Assembly: GCA_040876345.1 (NCBI GenBank)
Contig: JBBDPM010000001.1
Span: forward strand, 116,688 to 180,687
Length of the DNA stretch: 64,000 nucleotides
Direction: 5' to 3'
Source: Candidatus Woykebacteria bacterium
Lineage (GTDB): Bacteria; Patescibacteriota; Microgenomatia; Woykebacterales; RBG-16-39-9b
The position numbers and the translations under genes were made by a program. The notes under the pieces are model-generated. The model saw only the letters and a program-made list of their open reading frames with translations, ran no database searches and had not been told where the DNA came from. This document shows, piece by piece, positions 13,215-34,638 of this stretch (within the stretch, counting starts at the first letter, position 1; the number at the start of each line of letters is the position of its first letter).

Positions 13215-13680
13215 ATTGATTTATGGTAAACGCTCTAGTTTGACCAGTATTAGATTCAGTTAACGCGAAGTTATTTTGGGCACCGCTGTAGTTTTGTACC
13301 TCCCCTGAAAGTTTAGAAAAGATAATGTTACTAGAGGGTAAATTTATTGGGCTTATGGATATGCTTGGCTCAAACGTAGTTTCTAGGTTGGCTGTATCAC
13401 TTAGGTTGTAAGAAGCTCCTTTGAAAATAACGATTTTGTTTTGTTCAAAATGCACACCGTGGCTTTCGGCTGAGGAAGATCCCCCCGTGCTTCCCACCAT
13501 AGCTAGGTTTTGAGCTTCTTTAAGTGCAAAATAGATTTGGTCTTCGGCCGCTCTTATGTCGGCTTGGGATTTTGGTCTAGTGATACTCACTAATATGAAT
13601 CCAAAAGCTAAAGAAAATAGGGCGATAACTAATATAATTTCTATTAGGGTAAAGCCAGAAGACTTTAGAGATTTTCTCAT
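13192..13680 (-). CDS. Pseudopilin / minor pilin with a prepilin-type N-terminus
   Basis: SG|FTLIEIILVIALFSLAFGF motif. 162 aa. Overlaps both neighbours. Confidence 0.65.
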   Translation of the reverse strand: MRKSLKSSGFTLIEIILVIALFSLAFGFILVSITRPKSQADIRAAEDQIYFALKEAQNLAMVGSTGGSSSAESHGVHFEQNKIVIFKGASYNLSDTANLETTFEPSISISPINLPSSNIIFSKLSGEVQNYSGAQNNFALTESNTGQTRAFTINQYGRVTIN

Positions 13681-14780
13681 CCTGGGCTTATTTGGCTAAT
13701 TAATTGGTAAATTGGAGAAATTACAGCTAGGATCACAGAGCCAACAATAATACCAATTACAATGATTAAAGCTGGCTCAATTACCGTGGACAGGGTTTTT
13801 ACTTCGCGGGAGAGTTTGTCGTGGTAGTGGAGGGCTACACCAGCCAGGACTTCGTCGAGTTGTCCAGTTTTCTCTCCGGTGGAGATTATTCGAGTCATTA
13901 GAGTAGGAAAAGTTTTAAATTCTCTCATCCCCTCGGCCAACCCCTTACCTTCAGTCAATTTATGAGTTACTTCTTCAAGTTCACGCTTGGTTCTCTTATT
14001 CAAAACCACAGTTGATGAAGCTTCGACCGCCTTAATTATGGGAATGCCAGCCGAAAGTAGTAAGGATAAGGTGGACGAAAGGCGTGATAAGTCAAGATAT
14101 CTCAAGACACTTCCGAAAACTGGGATGTGAAAAGAAGCGGTGAGTAGTTTTTTCCGTACTTCTTTATTTGATAGTAAAATTATTGTGCCAATAGCAGCGA
14201 TTAAGATGAATATACCGACAAAAATATAGTATTTGTTTACAAAAAGAGCAGTGGAAAGGAGGATTCTTGTTGGTAATGGTTTGGGAATAGTAAGCTTTTC
14301 AAATATTTCGGCAACTCTGGGAACAACAAATCCAAAAAGAACCGCCATTACGAAAAAAAGCACGCCCAAGACAATCGCTGGGTAAAAAGCGGCTTGTTTA
14401 ATATCGTTTTTTAACTCTTCCTCTTGTTTCATGTTGTCGGAGAGCTGTTTGAGTACTTTATCCAAGCCCCCGCTTTCCTCTCCGGCTTTGACAGTATTTA
14501 CAAATATATCGTCAAAAATATTGGGGAATTGAGAGAAGCTTTCAGCAAGGTTGTGCCCTTTTTGGATGGAGTCTCTAACCGAGCGGACCACACCTTTAGT
14601 CTTTAAGTTGTCGGAGTCGTTTTCAATGCTTTCAAAAGCATCTAAAATTGGGATTCCGGCCCCAAGCATGATCCCTAAAGACTCGACTAAGGTGAGTCTT
14701 TCAATAAAAGGAAGTTTTACCTTAAGGGGGATTATTTTCGGCTCTTTTTTAACTGTGAAATTAAACATTGGCAGTTTCAA
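13677..14780 (-). CDS. pilC: Type IV pilus inner-membrane platform protein PilC (GspF family)
   Basis: Two GspF-type repeats (..GEESGGLDKVL.. and ..GEKTGQLDEVL..) and three TM segments. 367 aa. Confidence 0.85.
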   Translation of the reverse strand: MKLPMFNFTVKKEPKIIPLKVKLPFIERLTLVESLGIMLGAGIPILDAFESIENDSDNLKTKGVVRSVRDSIQKGHNLAESFSQFPNIFDDIFVNTVKAGEESGGLDKVLKQLSDNMKQEEELKNDIKQAAFYPAIVLGVLFFVMAVLFGFVVPRVAEIFEKLTIPKPLPTRILLSTALFVNKYYIFVGIFILIAAIGTIILLSNKEVRKKLLTASFHIPVFGSVLRYLDLSRLSSTLSLLLSAGIPIIKAVEASSTVVLNKRTKRELEEVTHKLTEGKGLAEGMREFKTFPTLMTRIISTGEKTGQLDEVLAGVALHYHDKLSREVKTLSTVIEPALIIVIGIIVGSVILAVISPIYQLISQISPG

Positions 14781-15049
14781 CCAAAATTATACCACTTGTG
14801 GGTGTTAAAGTAGATTCCAAAGTTTGACCCCAAACCCATAGCTATGTTATGATCAGGTACGAAATTTGTTGAAACAGCTTCGGATGGGTATTTTGTCGAC
14901 TAAGATTTAATCGCCAGTGAGCCCAATCTGAGGCCGCCGTAGGAGGGATTTCGATCAGTTTCGGGACGGTGTTACCCATGCAGCCCCAACCACATTTCCT
15001 AGTGAAGCCGTTAGTGGATCTAGGTGGGGCACCGAAAAGGAGGAAAGTG

Positions 15050-15649
15050 ATGTGGCGTACAGTAGAAGGACGAAGAGTTCTAAGGCCAACCGATAGAGAT
15101 CTTAAGCCTCGGGCAAGCAAACTCCAAGATGTCGCGAGGGTTATCAAAGGGCTAGGGTCTCCAGAATCGGTGGATATCTACGTTTCGAAGTGGCGGTTTG
15201 GTGTTACGATGCTGGGTGTTAATAGCAACATCAAAGGCGCAGTTCCCATAGGCGAGGTGGTAGAAGCTCTCAACATAGAGTTTGGGCGTGGTGAGTACCA
15301 CCAAGTAGGTGTTCAGCATGTAGGTGAATGGATTCTCTCACTTGCGACCACCTGCCCTGTCTTTTGGGCCTACACCGAGGATCGCTCTTGCTACATCGGG
15401 CGGCACGATCCGGTTGTAGCGGGGGGCACAGTGCTGTACAAGCACAGCGATGAATGCCCTTGTAGGCATCATGGAGTCAGCTGCAGCGTCCGGCCTTGCG
15501 GGGATTGCAAGGGAAGTTGTCCAATGATTCGTAAATGCACGAACTGTGGGAGTCGTTGGGATCTGAACAGGAAGCCTCCACGGCCGCTGACGCTCATTTG
15601 GACTCCGGTCCACGTTTCTAACCCCTGGTCTAGGGAGCAAGAAACGTAA
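15050..15649 (+). CDS. Hypothetical Cys-rich protein in a GC-rich (55-60% GC) island, antisense to the pilus operon
   Basis: Consensus SD (AAGGAGG, 15037-15043) lies 6 nt upstream of the ATG. The 200-codon ORF stays open across sequence at about 58% GC (chance p ~1e-3). The C-terminus has Cys pairs (CPCRHHG..CGDCKGSCP..CTNCG). The track ORF 14969-15649 includes an unlikely 5' extension. Confidence 0.45.
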   Translation: MWRTVEGRRVLRPTDRDLKPRASKLQDVARVIKGLGSPESVDIYVSKWRFGVTMLGVNSNIKGAVPIGEVVEALNIEFGRGEYHQVGVQHVGEWILSLATTCPVFWAYTEDRSCYIGRHDPVVAGGTVLYKHSDECPCRHHGVSCSVRPCGDCKGSCPMIRKCTNCGSRWDLNRKPPRPLTLIWTPVHVSNPWSREQET

Positions 15650-15716
15650 CGATTGTCGATCGTACTGGGTGGCGGTGGCAGGCTTGCCCTTCACCGCTGC
15701 CCACAGTTCTTATGTG

Positions 15717-17405
15717 TTATTCGCTTACTGCGCGGATGACTTCGCCAAGGCTTGTTTGGCCTTCGGCCACTTTTTCTAAGCCATCTTCAATCATTAGTTT
15801 AAAGCCTTCAGATTTTGCCTGATCCATTAGTTTTTGAATTGACGACTTGTCAAAAATTAGCTTGCGTAGGTCCTCACTCACCCGCAGTACTTCGTAAATC
15901 CCAACTCTTCCTCGGAAACCGGTATTTGAGCATTCTGGGCAGCCTTTTCCACGCCTTGCTTCTACTTTACCGGCCAAAAAACCGGCTACTACTTCTTCGC
16001 CGTATTCTTTAGCAAGGTCTTTAAGAACGCTTTCTTTAATCTCCTCTTTTACAAGGCAAGATGGGCAATTTCTGGCTACAAGTCGCTGCGAAATCACTAA
16101 ATTAAGGGTGGATCCAATTAGATAAGGCTGGGCTCCAAGGTCGTAAAGCCTTGGAATTGTACTGACTGCATCGTTCGTATGTAAAGAGCTCAGTACTAAA
16201 TGACCAGTTAGAGCAGCGTGAATTGCAATTTCGGAAGTTTCTTCATCGCGGATTTCTCCGACTAAAATTACGTTTGGATCATGCCTCAGGATTGCCCGAA
16301 GCCCAGAGGCAAAAGTAAGGCCAGCTTTAGGATTTATTTGGGTTTGGTTTACTCGGGGGAGTCCATATTCAATTGGATCTTCAATAGTGCAGATATTGAC
16401 ACTAGAGGTGTTGAGAATTATTAGCAGGTTGTATAGGGTTGTCGTTTTACCACTTCCCGTGGGGCCAGTTGAAAGTACCATACCATGGGATTTTTGGATG
16501 CCTTCTTTAACTAGTTTTAAGTTATTACCAGAGAGTCCAAGATCCTCCAAAGTCTTTGGTCTTGCTGCCGATGAAAGAAGCCGCATTACGGCGTCCTCAC
16601 CGTGATAGGTAGATAATATCGAGACCCTTACTGATATTTCGTCCGAGCGGTGTTTGAAGCGAAATCTACCGTCTTGGGGGAGCCGGTGCTCATCGGTGCG
16701 CAGATCTGAAATTATTTTTATCCTGGTGATTAATCCAGCCTGAATTGTGGTTGGAAGCTCTAAAACATCTCTAAGCCTGCCGTCAACCCTGAAGCGGATT
16801 ATTACTCTATCACCTACATTTTCAATGTGAATATCACTGGCTCTCTCCGATGCCGCAAAGTCTAATATTGTATCCAGGATTTTTACAACTGGAAGATCCT
16901 CACCACCGACTGCTCCTTTCGCTTTTGCTTGGGAGACGTTTTCCTCAATAATTTCCTTAAAATCCTTCCTTATATCCTTATGATATTGATCGAGGACGTC
17001 ATCTATTATTGAAGGTAGAGTGAAGTATATTTCTACTGACCCACCAACCTTTTTCTTGATAAAATCTAGGGCTTCAGGGTCTTGAGGATTTTCAAGCGCA
17101 ATTTTTACACTGTTACCATCTTTGGCAAAAGTCACCGCCCTTTTTTCAGCGGCTATCTCCTCGGGGATAAGATCTAAGATTGATTTTTCGATTTTATGGT
17201 CTTTTAGATCGGCGTAAGGGTAACCAACGTATTCGGCGATCGCTTGCCCAAGAAACTTCTCTAATATTACACCACGTTCTATTAATACATCAGTTAAGGG
17301 TTTATTTAGGTCAGAAGCAGCTTTTTCTGCCTCTTGTAGTTCGGCAGGATCAACAAATCCAGATTTTAAGATAAGCTTTTTAAGCTCATTACCTTCAATG
17401 GTCAT
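15717..17405 (-). CDS. pilB: Type IV pilus assembly ATPase PilB (GspE family)
   Basis: Walker A (STGPTGSGKTTTLY), Asp and His boxes, and a C-terminal tetracysteine motif (CPSC..CPEC). 562 aa. Confidence 0.9.
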   Translation of the reverse strand: MTIEGNELKKLILKSGFVDPAELQEAEKAASDLNKPLTDVLIERGVILEKFLGQAIAEYVGYPYADLKDHKIEKSILDLIPEEIAAEKRAVTFAKDGNSVKIALENPQDPEALDFIKKKVGGSVEIYFTLPSIIDDVLDQYHKDIRKDFKEIIEENVSQAKAKGAVGGEDLPVVKILDTILDFAASERASDIHIENVGDRVIIRFRVDGRLRDVLELPTTIQAGLITRIKIISDLRTDEHRLPQDGRFRFKHRSDEISVRVSILSTYHGEDAVMRLLSSAARPKTLEDLGLSGNNLKLVKEGIQKSHGMVLSTGPTGSGKTTTLYNLLIILNTSSVNICTIEDPIEYGLPRVNQTQINPKAGLTFASGLRAILRHDPNVILVGEIRDEETSEIAIHAALTGHLVLSSLHTNDAVSTIPRLYDLGAQPYLIGSTLNLVISQRLVARNCPSCLVKEEIKESVLKDLAKEYGEEVVAGFLAGKVEARRGKGCPECSNTGFRGRVGIYEVLRVSEDLRKLIFDKSSIQKLMDQAKSEGFKLMIEDGLEKVAEGQTSLGEVIRAVSE

Positions 17406-17770
17406 TTGGAATACTCGCGGATTTTATCAACAATTTCTTGGGGGGTGACATCTGTCTTCATGAATATTTCTTTCGCGCCTAAGCTTTTGCATTTTTTTAC
17501 ATCTTCTTCGGAAACATTTAGGTTTGTTAAAACAATCACCGGTATGTCTTTTGTTTCCGAGTCTCCTTTGATTTTTTCCAAAACTTCTGTACCACTCATT
17601 TTCGGTAACATTATATCGAGTACTATTACATCTGGCTTGGTGTCCTTTACTTTTTGCAGACCTTCTTCACCGTCCAGAGCAGTTTCAACCTGAAATCCGT
17701 CATGAGTGAATTTCATGTTATACATCTTCACCATTAAAGAGTCGTCCTCAACAAGCAGTACCTTACTCAT
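17402..17770 (-). CDS. Single-domain response regulator (CheY-like receiver)
   Basis: Receiver domain with the acidic pocket (LLVEDD) and phospho-acceptor Asp (VIVLDIMLP). No output domain. Its stop overlaps the pilB start. Confidence 0.8.
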   Translation of the reverse strand: MSKVLLVEDDSLMVKMYNMKFTHDGFQVETALDGEEGLQKVKDTKPDVIVLDIMLPKMSGTEVLEKIKGDSETKDIPVIVLTNLNVSEEDVKKCKSLGAKEIFMKTDVTPQEIVDKIREYSK

Positions 17771-18567
17771 CAGTTTTTACCCTCCTCTTGTGTAAGATTT
17801 TCAGCTACTTCTCTTGCTTTTTTACTGCCAGTTGTGGGTAAAGAAAAACAGAATTTTGAGCCCTCTTGAGGCTTACTTTCTCCAAGCCAAATTTTTCCAC
17901 CAAGTTTCTCAATAATGACTTTAGAAATATAAAGGCCTAGGCCACTGCCGCCCGAAACTCTAGTTTCTTTAGTTGAGGCTTGGGAAAATTTTTCGAAAAG
18001 ATGCGATTGCTTTTCCACTGGTACTCCCGCTCCGGTGTCGGCAACACAAGTTATTACGTAGTCTTCCTTCTGTGAAAAGTTAACCGTAATAGAGCCTTTT
18101 TTCGTAAATTTCATAGCGTTACCGACAAGATTAATTAGTACTTGAACTAGCTTGTCGGTGTCAGCTTGGACCTTTGGTAAATTTTCTGAAGGCGCTTCAA
18201 GAATTAGAGAAAGCTTTTTTTCGGAAGCGGAACGAATCAAAGATTGTAATAGAAGCCTTGCTTGTTCAACCACATCAATGTCGTCTCGTAAAATAAATTG
18301 CATTCGGCCAGCCTCAAGCCTGCTTATATCCAGCATGCCGTTGACAAGCCTGATTTCCCGCTCAACCGCAAGGAGCATTTCAGTAAGAACGTCCCTGACT
18401 TGAGGTGAGACAGGTCCTGCATCTCCGGCAAGAAGCATGTTTAAGTAACCTTTAATAGTGGACATTGGGGTACGTAGCTCATGAGAAACAATTGAAATAA
18501 ACTCATCCTTAACGGATTCCAACTTTTCTGTCTGGACATTTTGTTTTTGGGAGGTAGTCTCTTGCAT
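17770..18567 (-). CDS. Cytoplasmic histidine kinase (HisKA + HATPase_c, no sensor or TM)
   Basis: H-box SHELRTPMSTIKGY, N-box NLVGNAMKFT, G-boxes DTGAGV and GGSGLGL. Its stop overlaps the response regulator start. Confidence 0.8.
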   Translation of the reverse strand: MQETTSQKQNVQTEKLESVKDEFISIVSHELRTPMSTIKGYLNMLLAGDAGPVSPQVRDVLTEMLLAVEREIRLVNGMLDISRLEAGRMQFILRDDIDVVEQARLLLQSLIRSASEKKLSLILEAPSENLPKVQADTDKLVQVLINLVGNAMKFTKKGSITVNFSQKEDYVITCVADTGAGVPVEKQSHLFEKFSQASTKETRVSGGSGLGLYISKVIIEKLGGKIWLGESKPQEGSKFCFSLPTTGSKKAREVAENLTQEEGKN

Positions 18568-30289: not shown

Positions 30290-30559
30290 CTAGCGATTAT
30301 AAATTGCGTGGGTTCCTATATTGTCAAAAACAACCACGCTGCCTTCTTCAAAGTGAAAAACTATCCTCCATTGGTATGAAACGGAAAATGAGTAAAAATC
30401 GGCCAGTTTGCCCTTCAACTTGTGAGTTTTTAACCTTGGATCGAAAACGTCCTCCTTGAATATTTGTTCTTGCTTCTTGAGAGATTTGAGTTCTGAGCTG
30501 GGAAATCTTTTCAAACTTTTGAAAAAGGCAGATGAATATTTAATCTGCTTGGGCTTCAT
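30290..30559 (-). CDS. RelE/ParE-family toxin
   Basis: LKTHKLKGKLADFYSFSVSYQWRIVFHFEEGSVVVFDNIGTHAIY fits the RelE/ParE fold signature. It overlaps the upstream antitoxin. Confidence 0.65.
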   Translation of the reverse strand: MKPKQIKYSSAFFKSLKRFPSSELKSLKKQEQIFKEDVFDPRLKTHKLKGKLADFYSFSVSYQWRIVFHFEEGSVVVFDNIGTHAIYNR

Positions 30560-30797
30560 TCCAAAGTTCCTCTAACGAGCCTTTTAACACTTTTGCCTTG
30601 CCCTCTCTTGCTTCCTCACGGCTTTGTAATACAGATAAAACCGCTTCCATCTCTGCAAGTTCCGTAGCATCGATTATTGCAACCTGGGGCTTGTTATTCT
30701 TCATTACAAATATGGGCTCCTTGGTTTTCTTCGCCTGATCGAAGATTTTTTTGTAATTACGCTGTATTTCTCTGGCAGTAGTAGTTTTTGGAAACAT
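30540..30797 (-). CDS. Phd/YefM-family antitoxin
   Basis: The N-terminus T..EIQRNYKKIFDQAKKTKEPIFVMKNNKPQVAIID is typical of Phd/YefM. 85 aa. Confidence 0.65.
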   Translation of the reverse strand: MFPKTTTAREIQRNYKKIFDQAKKTKEPIFVMKNNKPQVAIIDATELAEMEAVLSVLQSREEAREGKAKVLKGSLEELWNEAQAD

Positions 30798-31959: not shown

Positions 31960-32709
31960 CTAGGCCTCGGTTGCCATGAGTGCCATGAGTATTTCTATGG
32001 CGGCCCGAGGTGGATTGAGGATGAGCCAGTCGTGACCAGTATCCTTGATGATCCGAGGCTCTACCCCAAGGGCTTCACAGATTGGCTCCCATGGGAAGTA
32101 CTCGTCGTTCTCTGCCCAGAGTACGGCAACTTCCGTTTGGAGGTTGGGTAGCACCTCAAGTAGGTTGCAGCGAACAGTCATCTGGAAAGTTCGCAGCATC
32201 CAAGTTGGGTGCTTGAGGTGGTTAGCCAGGAACGAAAGCACCACTTTCGCCGCTTGCCGCCGCTGACCCTTCCGGAAACTTCGCCAAGTTTTCTGGCGCC
32301 CCACGTTTAGCCAACCAAAGGTGGAACGCCGCACTCGACCGCCAGCGGTATCAACCAGGACAAGCTTGGCTACCCTTTCCGGGTAGTGCCTTGCAACTTC
32401 GGCTGCTACGGAACCACCCATGGAGTGACCAACAAGGCGGACTTTCGTAGCTCCGAGATGGTCGATTATTCCCACCACAATCTCGGCGAAGCGCCCAAGG
32501 TCAGCCAAGACCAAGGCGTCACTTTTTCCGTGGCCTGGTTGGTCTGGGATGATGACAAAGAAGGAGTTCGAAAGCAGCTCACCCACCAACTCAAATAGAG
32601 ACGCTTGGGCCGACCAGCCGTGGATGATCATTGCCGCTGGGTTTGTTGGGTCTCCTGCCGTCAGATAAGAGACCAAGCAGCCGTCGACGGAGACTTGACT
32701 CCTTTGCAT
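31960..32709 (-). CDS. Alpha/beta hydrolase in a GC-rich (about 57%) patch, probably horizontally acquired
   Basis: HGW oxyanion motif, GHSMGG nucleophile elbow, strong SD (AGGAGAGG) before the ATG. The 3' flank has a hairpin AGAGGG..CCCTCT. Confidence 0.75.
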   Translation of the reverse strand: MQRSQVSVDGCLVSYLTAGDPTNPAAMIIHGWSAQASLFELVGELLSNSFFVIIPDQPGHGKSDALVLADLGRFAEIVVGIIDHLGATKVRLVGHSMGGSVAAEVARHYPERVAKLVLVDTAGGRVRRSTFGWLNVGRQKTWRSFRKGQRRQAAKVVLSFLANHLKHPTWMLRTFQMTVRCNLLEVLPNLQTEVAVLWAENDEYFPWEPICEALGVEPRIIKDTGHDWLILNPPRAAIEILMALMATEA

Positions 32710-32799: not shown

Positions 32800-33201
32800 C
32801 TAAAGGGAAGGGTTTTTAGGCAGGTATTTAAGGGCAAATTGGTGGGCTTGGGCCTCTTGAATAGTTGTTTCTCTTTTAGTTTGCGGAGCAAGAATGGCGT
32901 TTTTGTGACCGAGCATCACGTGCCCAATTTCGTGGGCAACAGTGTAGTGTTGATCGTATTTATCCTGCTCAAAAAGCTCATCTCCCAGGAAAACTAGGTG
33001 TTTATTCCCAAGATCTTTACTATCCAACACAAAACCCCAAGCGTCATCAAAAGAAGATATGAACCAGACATTTGCGGAAATAAAGTTGATTATTTCTTTT
33101 GGGAAAAGGAGAAGTGTTTCGCAAACAAGAAGCTGCATCTTTGCGTTACCAACAAGCTTACCACTAAATCTCTTTTTTATCTTTTCAAGCTCTGGGCCCA
33201 T
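32800..33201 (-). CDS. Putative zinc metallopeptidase (HExxH, ImmA/IrrE- or DUF955-like)
   Basis: HEIGHVMLGH motif in a 133-aa protein. There is no adjacent HTH partner. Confidence 0.45.
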   Translation of the reverse strand: MGPELEKIKKRFSGKLVGNAKMQLLVCETLLLFPKEIINFISANVWFISSFDDAWGFVLDSKDLGNKHLVFLGDELFEQDKYDQHYTVAHEIGHVMLGHKNAILAPQTKRETTIQEAQAHQFALKYLPKNPSL

Positions 33202-34353: not shown

Positions 34354-34638
34354 TCAGCGGTACGGGTGTCGGCGGCAATAGTCGCAGAGCAGGCGGCTCG
34401 TTCTCCAGATCAAAAACCAGCTGCTGTGATTGCACGGTAGTTGGCTGCCGTACTCGGTATTCTTGCGCCCGCTTCCATAGCAGGGTGTGCATGTTTTGAC
34501 GCCCGTGGTCTTACCGCACTGCCCACATCTCGTCACTGGCCGTATCCGACCCCAGCGTACGATGGGCAAGAGGAGCAAGACCCCAACGAGTATCAGTACC
34601 GACAATTCGAGTGGCATCTCGATTGCGATTATTGGCAT
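34354..34638 (-). CDS. Small TM protein with CxxC pairs, in a GC-rich (about 57%) patch
   Basis: Strong SD GGAAGGAGG 6 nt before the ATG. TM helix, then CGQCGKTTG..CTPCYGSG (the second matches the DnaJ-type CxxCxGxG motif). The C-terminal third of the ORF may be read-through. Confidence 0.4.
   Translation of the reverse strand: MPIIAIEMPLELSVLILVGVLLLLPIVRWGRIRPVTRCGQCGKTTGVKTCTPCYGSGRKNTEYGSQLPCNHSSWFLIWRTSRLLCDYCRRHPYR

Follow-up and report, generated by a model that had tools for sequence, protein, structure and literature searches.

A GC-rich single-gene block between pilB and pilC of a Candidatus Woykebacteria bacterium, a putative acquired expression cassette with a structured leader RNA

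Patescibacteria (CPR) can hardly be studied in the laboratory, and to our knowledge almost nothing is known about their regulatory RNAs and small mobile elements. Their type IV pilus machinery is thought to serve DNA uptake and host attachment. In the DNA of a Candidatus Woykebacteria bacterium analysed here (the window, a stretch of 64,000 nt), the pilus genes pilB and pilC are separated by a spacer of 936 bp (14781-15716, measured from the TTG start of pilC), and this spacer carries a gene on the plus strand, antisense to both neighbours. What is this block, where did it come from, and what does it produce? A sequence-only reading had taken it for a recently acquired gene, possibly encoding a nuclease-like zinc-finger protein, and had set aside a structured RNA as the weaker alternative.

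The two flanking genes encode a PilB-type ATPase (PF00437) and a PilC-type platform protein (PF00482) and thus belong to a type IV pilus / T2SS operon (Table 1). The identical PilB is named 'GspE/PulE family protein [Candidatus Woykebacteria bacterium]' at NCBI, and its identity to the nearest species representatives is only 49%. The pilC product can be aligned nearly full length to PilC of relatives, and neither gene is truncated where it meets the block. Directly upstream of pilB, a histidine kinase gene and a response regulator gene (17402-18567, minus strand) were found; their 4-nt overlap with pilB suggests two-component control of the pilus operon.

The GC content of the block is 0.52 overall (0.47-0.575 in 200-nt windows) against a window mean of 0.42 (sd 0.041, 400-nt windows), and the jump is abrupt at both edges. 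The value of 55-60% GC originally given for the whole block holds for its 3' half (about 55-57%), where 0.56-0.575 is reached only from ~15300 onward, and is too high for the block overall. GC3 of the open reading frame is 0.536; the window's 51 long ORFs have 0.391 +/- 0.056, and the deviation of +2.6 sd is approached by only one other ORF. pilB and pilC had been assumed to be normally adjacent, and they are indeed neighbours without the block in all 35 distant Patescibacteria loci where both genes were located; the raw hit-to-hit gaps there are 161-458 nt, consist partly of the unaligned PilC N-terminus and have host-like GC. No transposase had been apparent from the sequence, and none was found, nor did the edges of the block show terminal inverted repeats or a target-site duplication, so the block does not qualify as an insertion sequence or transposon. 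A 13-nt direct repeat with copies 936 bp apart (14609 and 15545) was considered as a target duplication and rejected as chance, the copies lying within pilC and the ORF. Since the ORF is a GC3 outlier, pilB and pilC adjoin each other elsewhere, the flanking genes are full length, and neither transposase nor repeats are present, the block is best read as foreign DNA, in agreement with its acquired look.

Table 1. Positions of the features discussed, in window coordinates unless a contig is named
Feature	Position	Strand	Remark
pilC, T2SSF platform protein	13677..14768	-	left flank, outside the cassette; PF00482, 8.4e-55
Putative extended -10 box TGgTATAAT	14786..14794	-	read from sequence
Cassette promoter TTGACC-18 nt-TG-n-TATGAT	14824..14853	+	10/12 consensus matches plus TG extension
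Conserved structured leader RNA (predicted), ~175 nt	14875..15049	+	4-leader alignment, RNAalifold, covariance model R1
Leader helix P1	14877-14889/14922-14934	+	
Leader helix P1a	14891-14902/14909-14918	+	
Leader helix P2	14935-14940/14966-14971	+	
Inner hairpin within P2	14951-14955/14959-14965	+	
Leader pseudoknot	14943-14948/14974-14979	+	weak in the window copy
Leader helix P3	14984-14988/15025-15029	+	
Leader helix P4	15020-15024/14998-15002	+	
Shine-Dalgarno AAGGAGG	15037..15043	+	6 nt before ATG; 7 nt past the 3' strand of P3
CDS of 199-aa protein P0001	15050..15649	+	ATG 15050, TAA 15647-15649; homologues P0002-P0007
Cys/His-rich C-terminal segment, residues 114-170	15389-15559	+	long forms only
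3' hairpin, 13 + 3 bp	15666..15703	+	-28.9 kcal/mol, z -2.4
Moderately U-rich tail after the 3' hairpin	15704-15716	+	hairpin end 13 nt from the pilB stop codon
pilB, T2SSE ATPase	15717..17405	-	right flank, outside the cassette; PF00437, 1.4e-121; PF05157 too
Tandem array of ~1-kb single-gene units beside tRNA-His	L082:5100-10700		
Insertion sequence, rve transposase 294 aa	L082:8797-9768		27-nt terminal inverted repeats

The ORF of about 200 codons and its AAGGAGG-N6-ATG start region were correctly recognized from the sequence: the frame has 199 codons, and the Cys motifs quoted for its product, P0001, are present. In-frame GTG and ATG codons further upstream (14969 or 14978) are not conserved in homologues and were rejected as starts in favour of 15050. 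A word-indexed search of 5.8 billion clusters returned only P0001 itself. A full HMMER scan of 1.84 billion cluster representatives gave one relative, P0002 (39% identity, E 2.9e-23), and profile searches then added P0003 and four short forms of 135 aa (P0004-P0007). The family therefore numbers seven variants in all, six besides P0001 among ~15 billion proteins. Its members share an N-terminal alpha/beta domain (~residues 1-120 of P0001), which the AF2 model renders with pLDDT 57-81 (<40 in the C-terminal part). The long forms (183-199 aa) continue into a Cys/His-rich segment with the pattern C-x4-H ... H-x3-C-x-C-x2-H ... C-x4-C-x2-C-x2/3-C-P ... C-x2-C, in which C114, H119, H132, C136, C138, H141, C145, C150, C153, C157, C163 and C166 are invariant; 8 Cys and 3 His are counted as unvarying, and the segment probably binds metal. 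The short forms are devoid of it and have only the N-terminal ~85 residues in common with the long forms (hhalign probability 89.6, E 1.9e-6).

Several observations bear on whether this frame is translated. The homologues keep it, together with the Cys/His columns; dN/dS is 0.37 between loci L082 and L084 and 0.36 between L127 and L133, third codon positions change most, and in the one pair checked for length (L082, 552 nt; L084, 555 nt) the difference is a multiple of three. Among near-identical copies of the family genes, dN/dS is ~1. The comparison shows that the ORF is a real gene, fast-evolving under moderate constraint, as had been argued from the long frame and the Shine-Dalgarno sequence. 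No homology had been recognized in the product, and nothing usable came from Pfam (E up to 1), PHROGs, PADLOC, PDB sequence profiles or folds, so that P0001 appears to represent a new protein family outside every Pfam family. The idea of a zinc-finger nuclease found no support, as P0001 contains no recognisable nuclease or zinc-ribbon domain; no recombinase motif was seen either. No match to the cassette turned up in IMG/VR or in the GenBank records of phages with the protein, the DNA or three motif patterns as query, which leaves a phage origin without support.

The segment between promoter and start codon turned out to be a second component of the block. Four distinct full-length leader sequences from three lineages (window, L082, L084 and L127) were aligned, and the RNAalifold consensus comprises a long hairpin domain (P1/P1a), a helix P2 with an inner stem, and a helix P3 enclosing P4, with 9 compensatory pairs. 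A pseudoknot, found by eye and in register in all four leaders, joins the P2 loop with the strand 3' of P2. With the pseudoknot included, 90.3% of the alignment cells fall in standard pairs, compared with 37-55% in slid controls, in which the pairing partners were shifted by 1-3 columns. Fifteen pairs are changed on both sides, a number matched by none of 500 shuffles, and these statistics reflect few independent events because the alignment holds four distinct sequences from three lineages only. Five of the six pseudoknot pairs covary across the alignment, and the window's own copy forms four of the six. Folded alone, the window leader has no unusual stability (z -0.64). Nucleotide identity is higher in the leader than in the CDS, both for window and L082 (0.58 vs 0.44) and for L082 and L127 (0.68 vs 0.31). 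Taken together, the comparison shows that the leader is a genuine structured RNA and the best conserved part of the unit.

The distribution of this RNA follows that of the protein. A covariance model built for it, R1, scores 142.8 bits at the window leader and, in ~343 kb of window and loci, matches solely upstream of the P0001 family, with no second copy in the window or in L082. A leader-pattern scan of metagenomes gave 46 matches, of which L123 and L127 are true; the other 44 are chance and carry no R1 match. The leader was found before every family member whose upstream sequence is available, the short forms included. The N-terminal domain is coinherited with the leader, and the C-terminal domain is exchangeable. 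Rfam 15 had no match at gathering score in the whole 64 kb, and with E up to 10 the region 14600-15900 returned only two chance snoRNA matches (E 3.6 and 8). ARAGORN found nothing in the block, in keeping with the earlier statement that RNase P, tmRNA and group II intron signatures are absent, and the Rfam 15 search likewise excludes a match to group I introns, riboswitches, ribozymes, OLE, GOLLD, ROOL and HEARO. By these comparisons the leader is a new RNA motif outside every Rfam family. The structured RNA that had been dismissed as an alternative to a protein gene is present beside it, as a covarying, pseudoknotted 5' leader.

The leader directly precedes the Shine-Dalgarno sequence, which is kept along with the ATG in all four aligned leaders. 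Contact between the Shine-Dalgarno sequence and the consensus fold is limited to one 3-bp helix; anti-Shine-Dalgarno pairings of 4-5 bp were spotted by eye, and their form is not conserved among the leaders. No tandem or direct repeats were found within the leader, and no terminator or processing signal between leader and ORF. Three of the four leaders contain, within the 5' strand of P1, a short AUG reading frame of 7-9 codons (14884-14910 on the plus strand of the window; L084 has AUA); the sequence of the helix probably accounts for it.

Signals for transcription lie at both ends of the unit. The promoter scan identified a strong promoter of sigma-70 type ~190 nt upstream of the ATG, and homologous cassettes have TTGACT...TATAAT at the same position. 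In the homologues, too, a long hairpin follows directly after the stop codon; the 3' hairpin of the window copy probably terminates or stabilises the cassette transcript. Cassette and pilB point towards each other, and no U-tract follows the hairpin on the strand of pilB, whose transcripts probably continue antisense across the cassette. On the other side, the extended -10 box could drive pilC independently of pilB; it is absent from the promoter scan because no -35 element fits. An imperfect inverted repeat of 23 nt (74% complementary, 14771-14793 / 14856-14878) flanks the divergent pilC/cassette promoter region, and could be an operator or chance.

We propose that the block was acquired horizontally as an autonomous expression cassette, the leader of which acts in cis or together with its own protein, and we assign this reading a probability of roughly 0.55. 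The unit would be made up of a sigma-70 promoter, the pseudoknotted leader of ~175 nt, a consensus ribosome-binding site, the 199-aa protein and a closing hairpin. The leader would cooperate with the N-terminal domain shared by the family: it may be an operator to which the cassette's own protein binds through that domain, and the protein-bound leader would then block entry of the 30S subunit at the Shine-Dalgarno sequence, resulting in translational feedback control. A protein-bound operator is the simplest mechanism because the 3' strand of P3 ends just before the Shine-Dalgarno sequence and no terminator lies between them. How the leader regulates is a guess, since no conserved helix that would mask the Shine-Dalgarno sequence turned up; we infer that the operator mode is the most likely one and that a role of the leader as RNA partner of a small ribonucleoprotein is less likely.

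The strict co-occurrence of the RNA with its gene and its position abutting the ribosome-binding site are what is expected of autoregulatory leaders. Like the ribosomal-protein leaders, the E. coli thrS operator and the phage T4 gene 32 and regA operators, the leader is a structured RNA placed before the ribosome-binding site of one gene, and it travels with that gene. Unlike them, it has no relation in sequence or structure to the described leaders (Rfam negative), P0001 is no known RNA binder, and the unit is not a housekeeping operon but a rare, foreign-looking cassette.

Four other explanations were weighed. The abrupt change of composition at both edges might raise the suspicion of a chimeric assembly, in which GC-rich foreign DNA was wrongly joined into the pilus operon, and we give this almost no credence: a 237-kb Logan contig and a 376-kb NCBI MAG contig of GCA_040903525.1 show the pilB/block junction with every base the same, six contigs carry the identical PilB and three carry P0001, and both flanking genes are complete up to the edges. 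Misassembly is thus unlikely. The difference between six and three contigs was considered as a presence/absence polymorphism of the block and rejected, because the NCBI contig carries the identical block with the gene uncalled. The record concerned (L137; JBBDVF010000004.1) has the identical block sequence and no gene for the 199-codon ORF, so public annotation contains only a long intergenic gap there. It is very improbable, too, that a single large structured non-coding RNA spans all 0.9 kb of the block and that the ORF is incidental. The plus strand of the block does fold better than shuffles (z -2.6; minus strand, z -0.66), and the block is GC-rich on an AT-rich background. However, seven variants preserve the frame together with its start codon and Shine-Dalgarno sequence, third-position changes are in excess and dN/dS stays under 1, amino acids are conserved at a nucleotide identity of only 0.44, and no Rfam family matches.

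The other two accept both RNA and protein and differ from our reading in what the RNA does. The leader could be a riboswitch, whose aptamer would sense a small molecule or a metal ion and control how the Cys/His-rich, perhaps metal- or redox-related, protein downstream is translated. A conserved, covarying, pseudoknotted 5' UTR element directly before a ribosome-binding site is what a riboswitch aptamer looks like, the long proteins have 11 conserved Cys/His, and their C-x4-C-x2-C-x3-C-P stretch is reminiscent of metal or Fe-S sites. Riboswitches are also reported to be enriched in long GC-rich intergenic regions (PMC8723152, PMC6429828), and the block resembles the GC-IGR or DIMPL-type cases in being a GC-rich island of an AT-rich genome with such an element; it differs from them in that the element was found with a single orphan protein family, has no recognisable expression platform and lies in a gene context that gives no hint of a ligand. 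The riboswitch reading is weakened because short forms without the Cys-rich domain carry the same leader and because the leader is tied, in the R1 search, to one protein family and not to several pathway genes. Neither a terminator nor a conserved anti-Shine-Dalgarno helix was found, and no Rfam riboswitch matched even at E up to 10. We consider it unlikely. Quite unlikely, in our estimate, is a module of two parts, with an RNA that is cut from the 5' end of the mRNA and works as part of a ribonucleoprotein, or as an RNA antitoxin against a protein toxin, in conflict or mobility. The order of the unit, with a non-coding RNA 5' of a protein gene, recalls IS110 bridge RNAs and type III toxin-antitoxin loci. 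RNA and N-terminal domain always occur together, the RNA being the more conserved partner; the protein evolves fast (dN/dS 0.37 to ~1) and exchanges its C-terminal domain in the manner of conflict genes; and the cassette is found in islands or arrays that have toxin-antitoxin genes and an insertion sequence in their neighbourhood. On the other hand, tandem repeats are absent from the upstream RNA, searches of PADLOC, Pfam and PHROGs came back empty, RNA and ORF are not separated by a terminator or a processing signal, and no recombinase or nuclease motif was seen. Type III toxin-antitoxin systems of the ToxIN kind consist of tandem RNA repeats and an endoribonuclease, neither of which was found by repeat search, PADLOC and Pfam. 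The IS110 elements also have a ~1-kb unit in which a promoter is followed by a structured RNA of ~180 nt and a protein gene. Their recombinases, however, are ~300-450 aa long with DEDD/RuvC and Tnp domains, and P0001, about half that size at 199 aa, has neither domain; no element ends and no guide-like loops were identified here.

How an acquired expression cassette of this kind might move is suggested by one of the relatives. On L082, an 80-kb contig (the same DNA as L123), the homologue lies within a GC-rich island (0.49-0.57 vs 0.36-0.40) that starts at the 3' end of a tRNA-His gene. The island contains five copies of a 35-nt repeat, ACTGGGTTCGAACTTTGTCTATCCAAGGACCCCAT, which resembles the 3' end of the adjacent tRNA-His. 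The copies are spaced by 924-1138 bp, except that the fifth follows only 191 bp after the fourth, and each inter-repeat interval holds one unit with the common promoter CCTATAGTAcTTGACtttt...TATAAT and a leader of its own. Three units have one ORF each (185-201 aa, no Pfam match); no ORF is convincing in the unit nearest the tRNA (~5520-5100, minus strand), which may be a non-coding RNA. The units end in a common 3' module of a long hairpin, a CCTAAG...CTTAGG hairpin and a terminator. The homologue of the P0001 gene is the last unit of the array, in opposite orientation. The other array proteins are unrelated to the P0001 family, and because the leaders of the other units are unrelated as well, the ~175-nt RNA belongs to the P0001 family and not to the cassette backbone. 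Sequence resembling the tRNA-like repeat also lies directly upstream of the cassette promoter in L084 and L127. Rfam matched only tRNAs in the L082 island. An insertion sequence, just upstream of the homologue's promoter, separates it from the last tRNA-like repeat; the rve gene of this element was considered as a transposase link to the cassette and rejected, the element being an independent insertion sequence with its own inverted repeats.

Judging from the L082 array only, the unit may have arrived in the window as mobile cargo, with a recombinase supplied in trans that acts at tRNA-like repeats. The window cassette has just the leader, the ORF and the post-stop hairpin in common with its relatives; it has no tRNA-like repeat, not the common promoter sequence, and lacks two of the three 3' modules. 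Because of this, cassette mobility is derived from distant homologues (36% identity). The array resembles tRNA-linked arrays such as tycheposon-type islands and integron cassette arrays in its GC-rich ~1-kb units beside tRNA-His and its 35-nt repeats. It differs in that no integrase was found in it, the unrelated rve insertion sequence being the only element of that kind, and the window copy has none of the repeats. Integron cassettes, moreover, are promoterless and have attC sites; each unit here has its own promoter and terminator, no attC site was found, the 3' hairpin has no R''/R' core sites, and intI was not seen near the window block or in the L082 array.

A more far-reaching version can be drawn up, in which the leader and the N-terminal domain form an undescribed RNA-protein module that is carried on self-expressing mini-cassettes of ~1 kb, which Patescibacteria would collect in tandem at tRNA-like repeats with the help of a recombinase in trans. 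We regard this as a doubtful, speculative extension. If true, it would mean both a new cassette mobility and a new class of functional RNA, be it a ribonucleoprotein, a riboswitch or a ribozyme. Our literature search found no description of such cassettes or of the ~175-nt RNA. The cassette offers a testable pair of a covarying, pseudoknotted RNA and an orphan protein of metal-binding type, small enough for work in vitro or in E. coli, and the L082 tandem array at a tRNA gene may show how reduced genomes acquire cargo. In the host, the cassette splits the pilB-pilC pair and may affect pilus expression via convergent transcription.

A few further genes of the window deserve mention. The strongest compositional outlier of the window is a gene for a 249-aa alpha/beta hydrolase (31960-32709, minus strand; PF00561, 4e-23) with GC 0.56 and GC3 0.616, which forms a second foreign-looking single-gene island with its own promoter. 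Another Cys-rich ORF, of 94 aa with an N-terminal hydrophobic segment and a weak zf-C4 match, lies in a patch of GC 0.51-0.52 (34354-34638, minus strand). An M78 peptidase-like gene (IrrE-type) is located at 32800-33201, and a type II toxin-antitoxin pair, composed of a YafQ/RelE-like toxin and a Phd/YefM antitoxin, at 30290-30797 on the minus strand.
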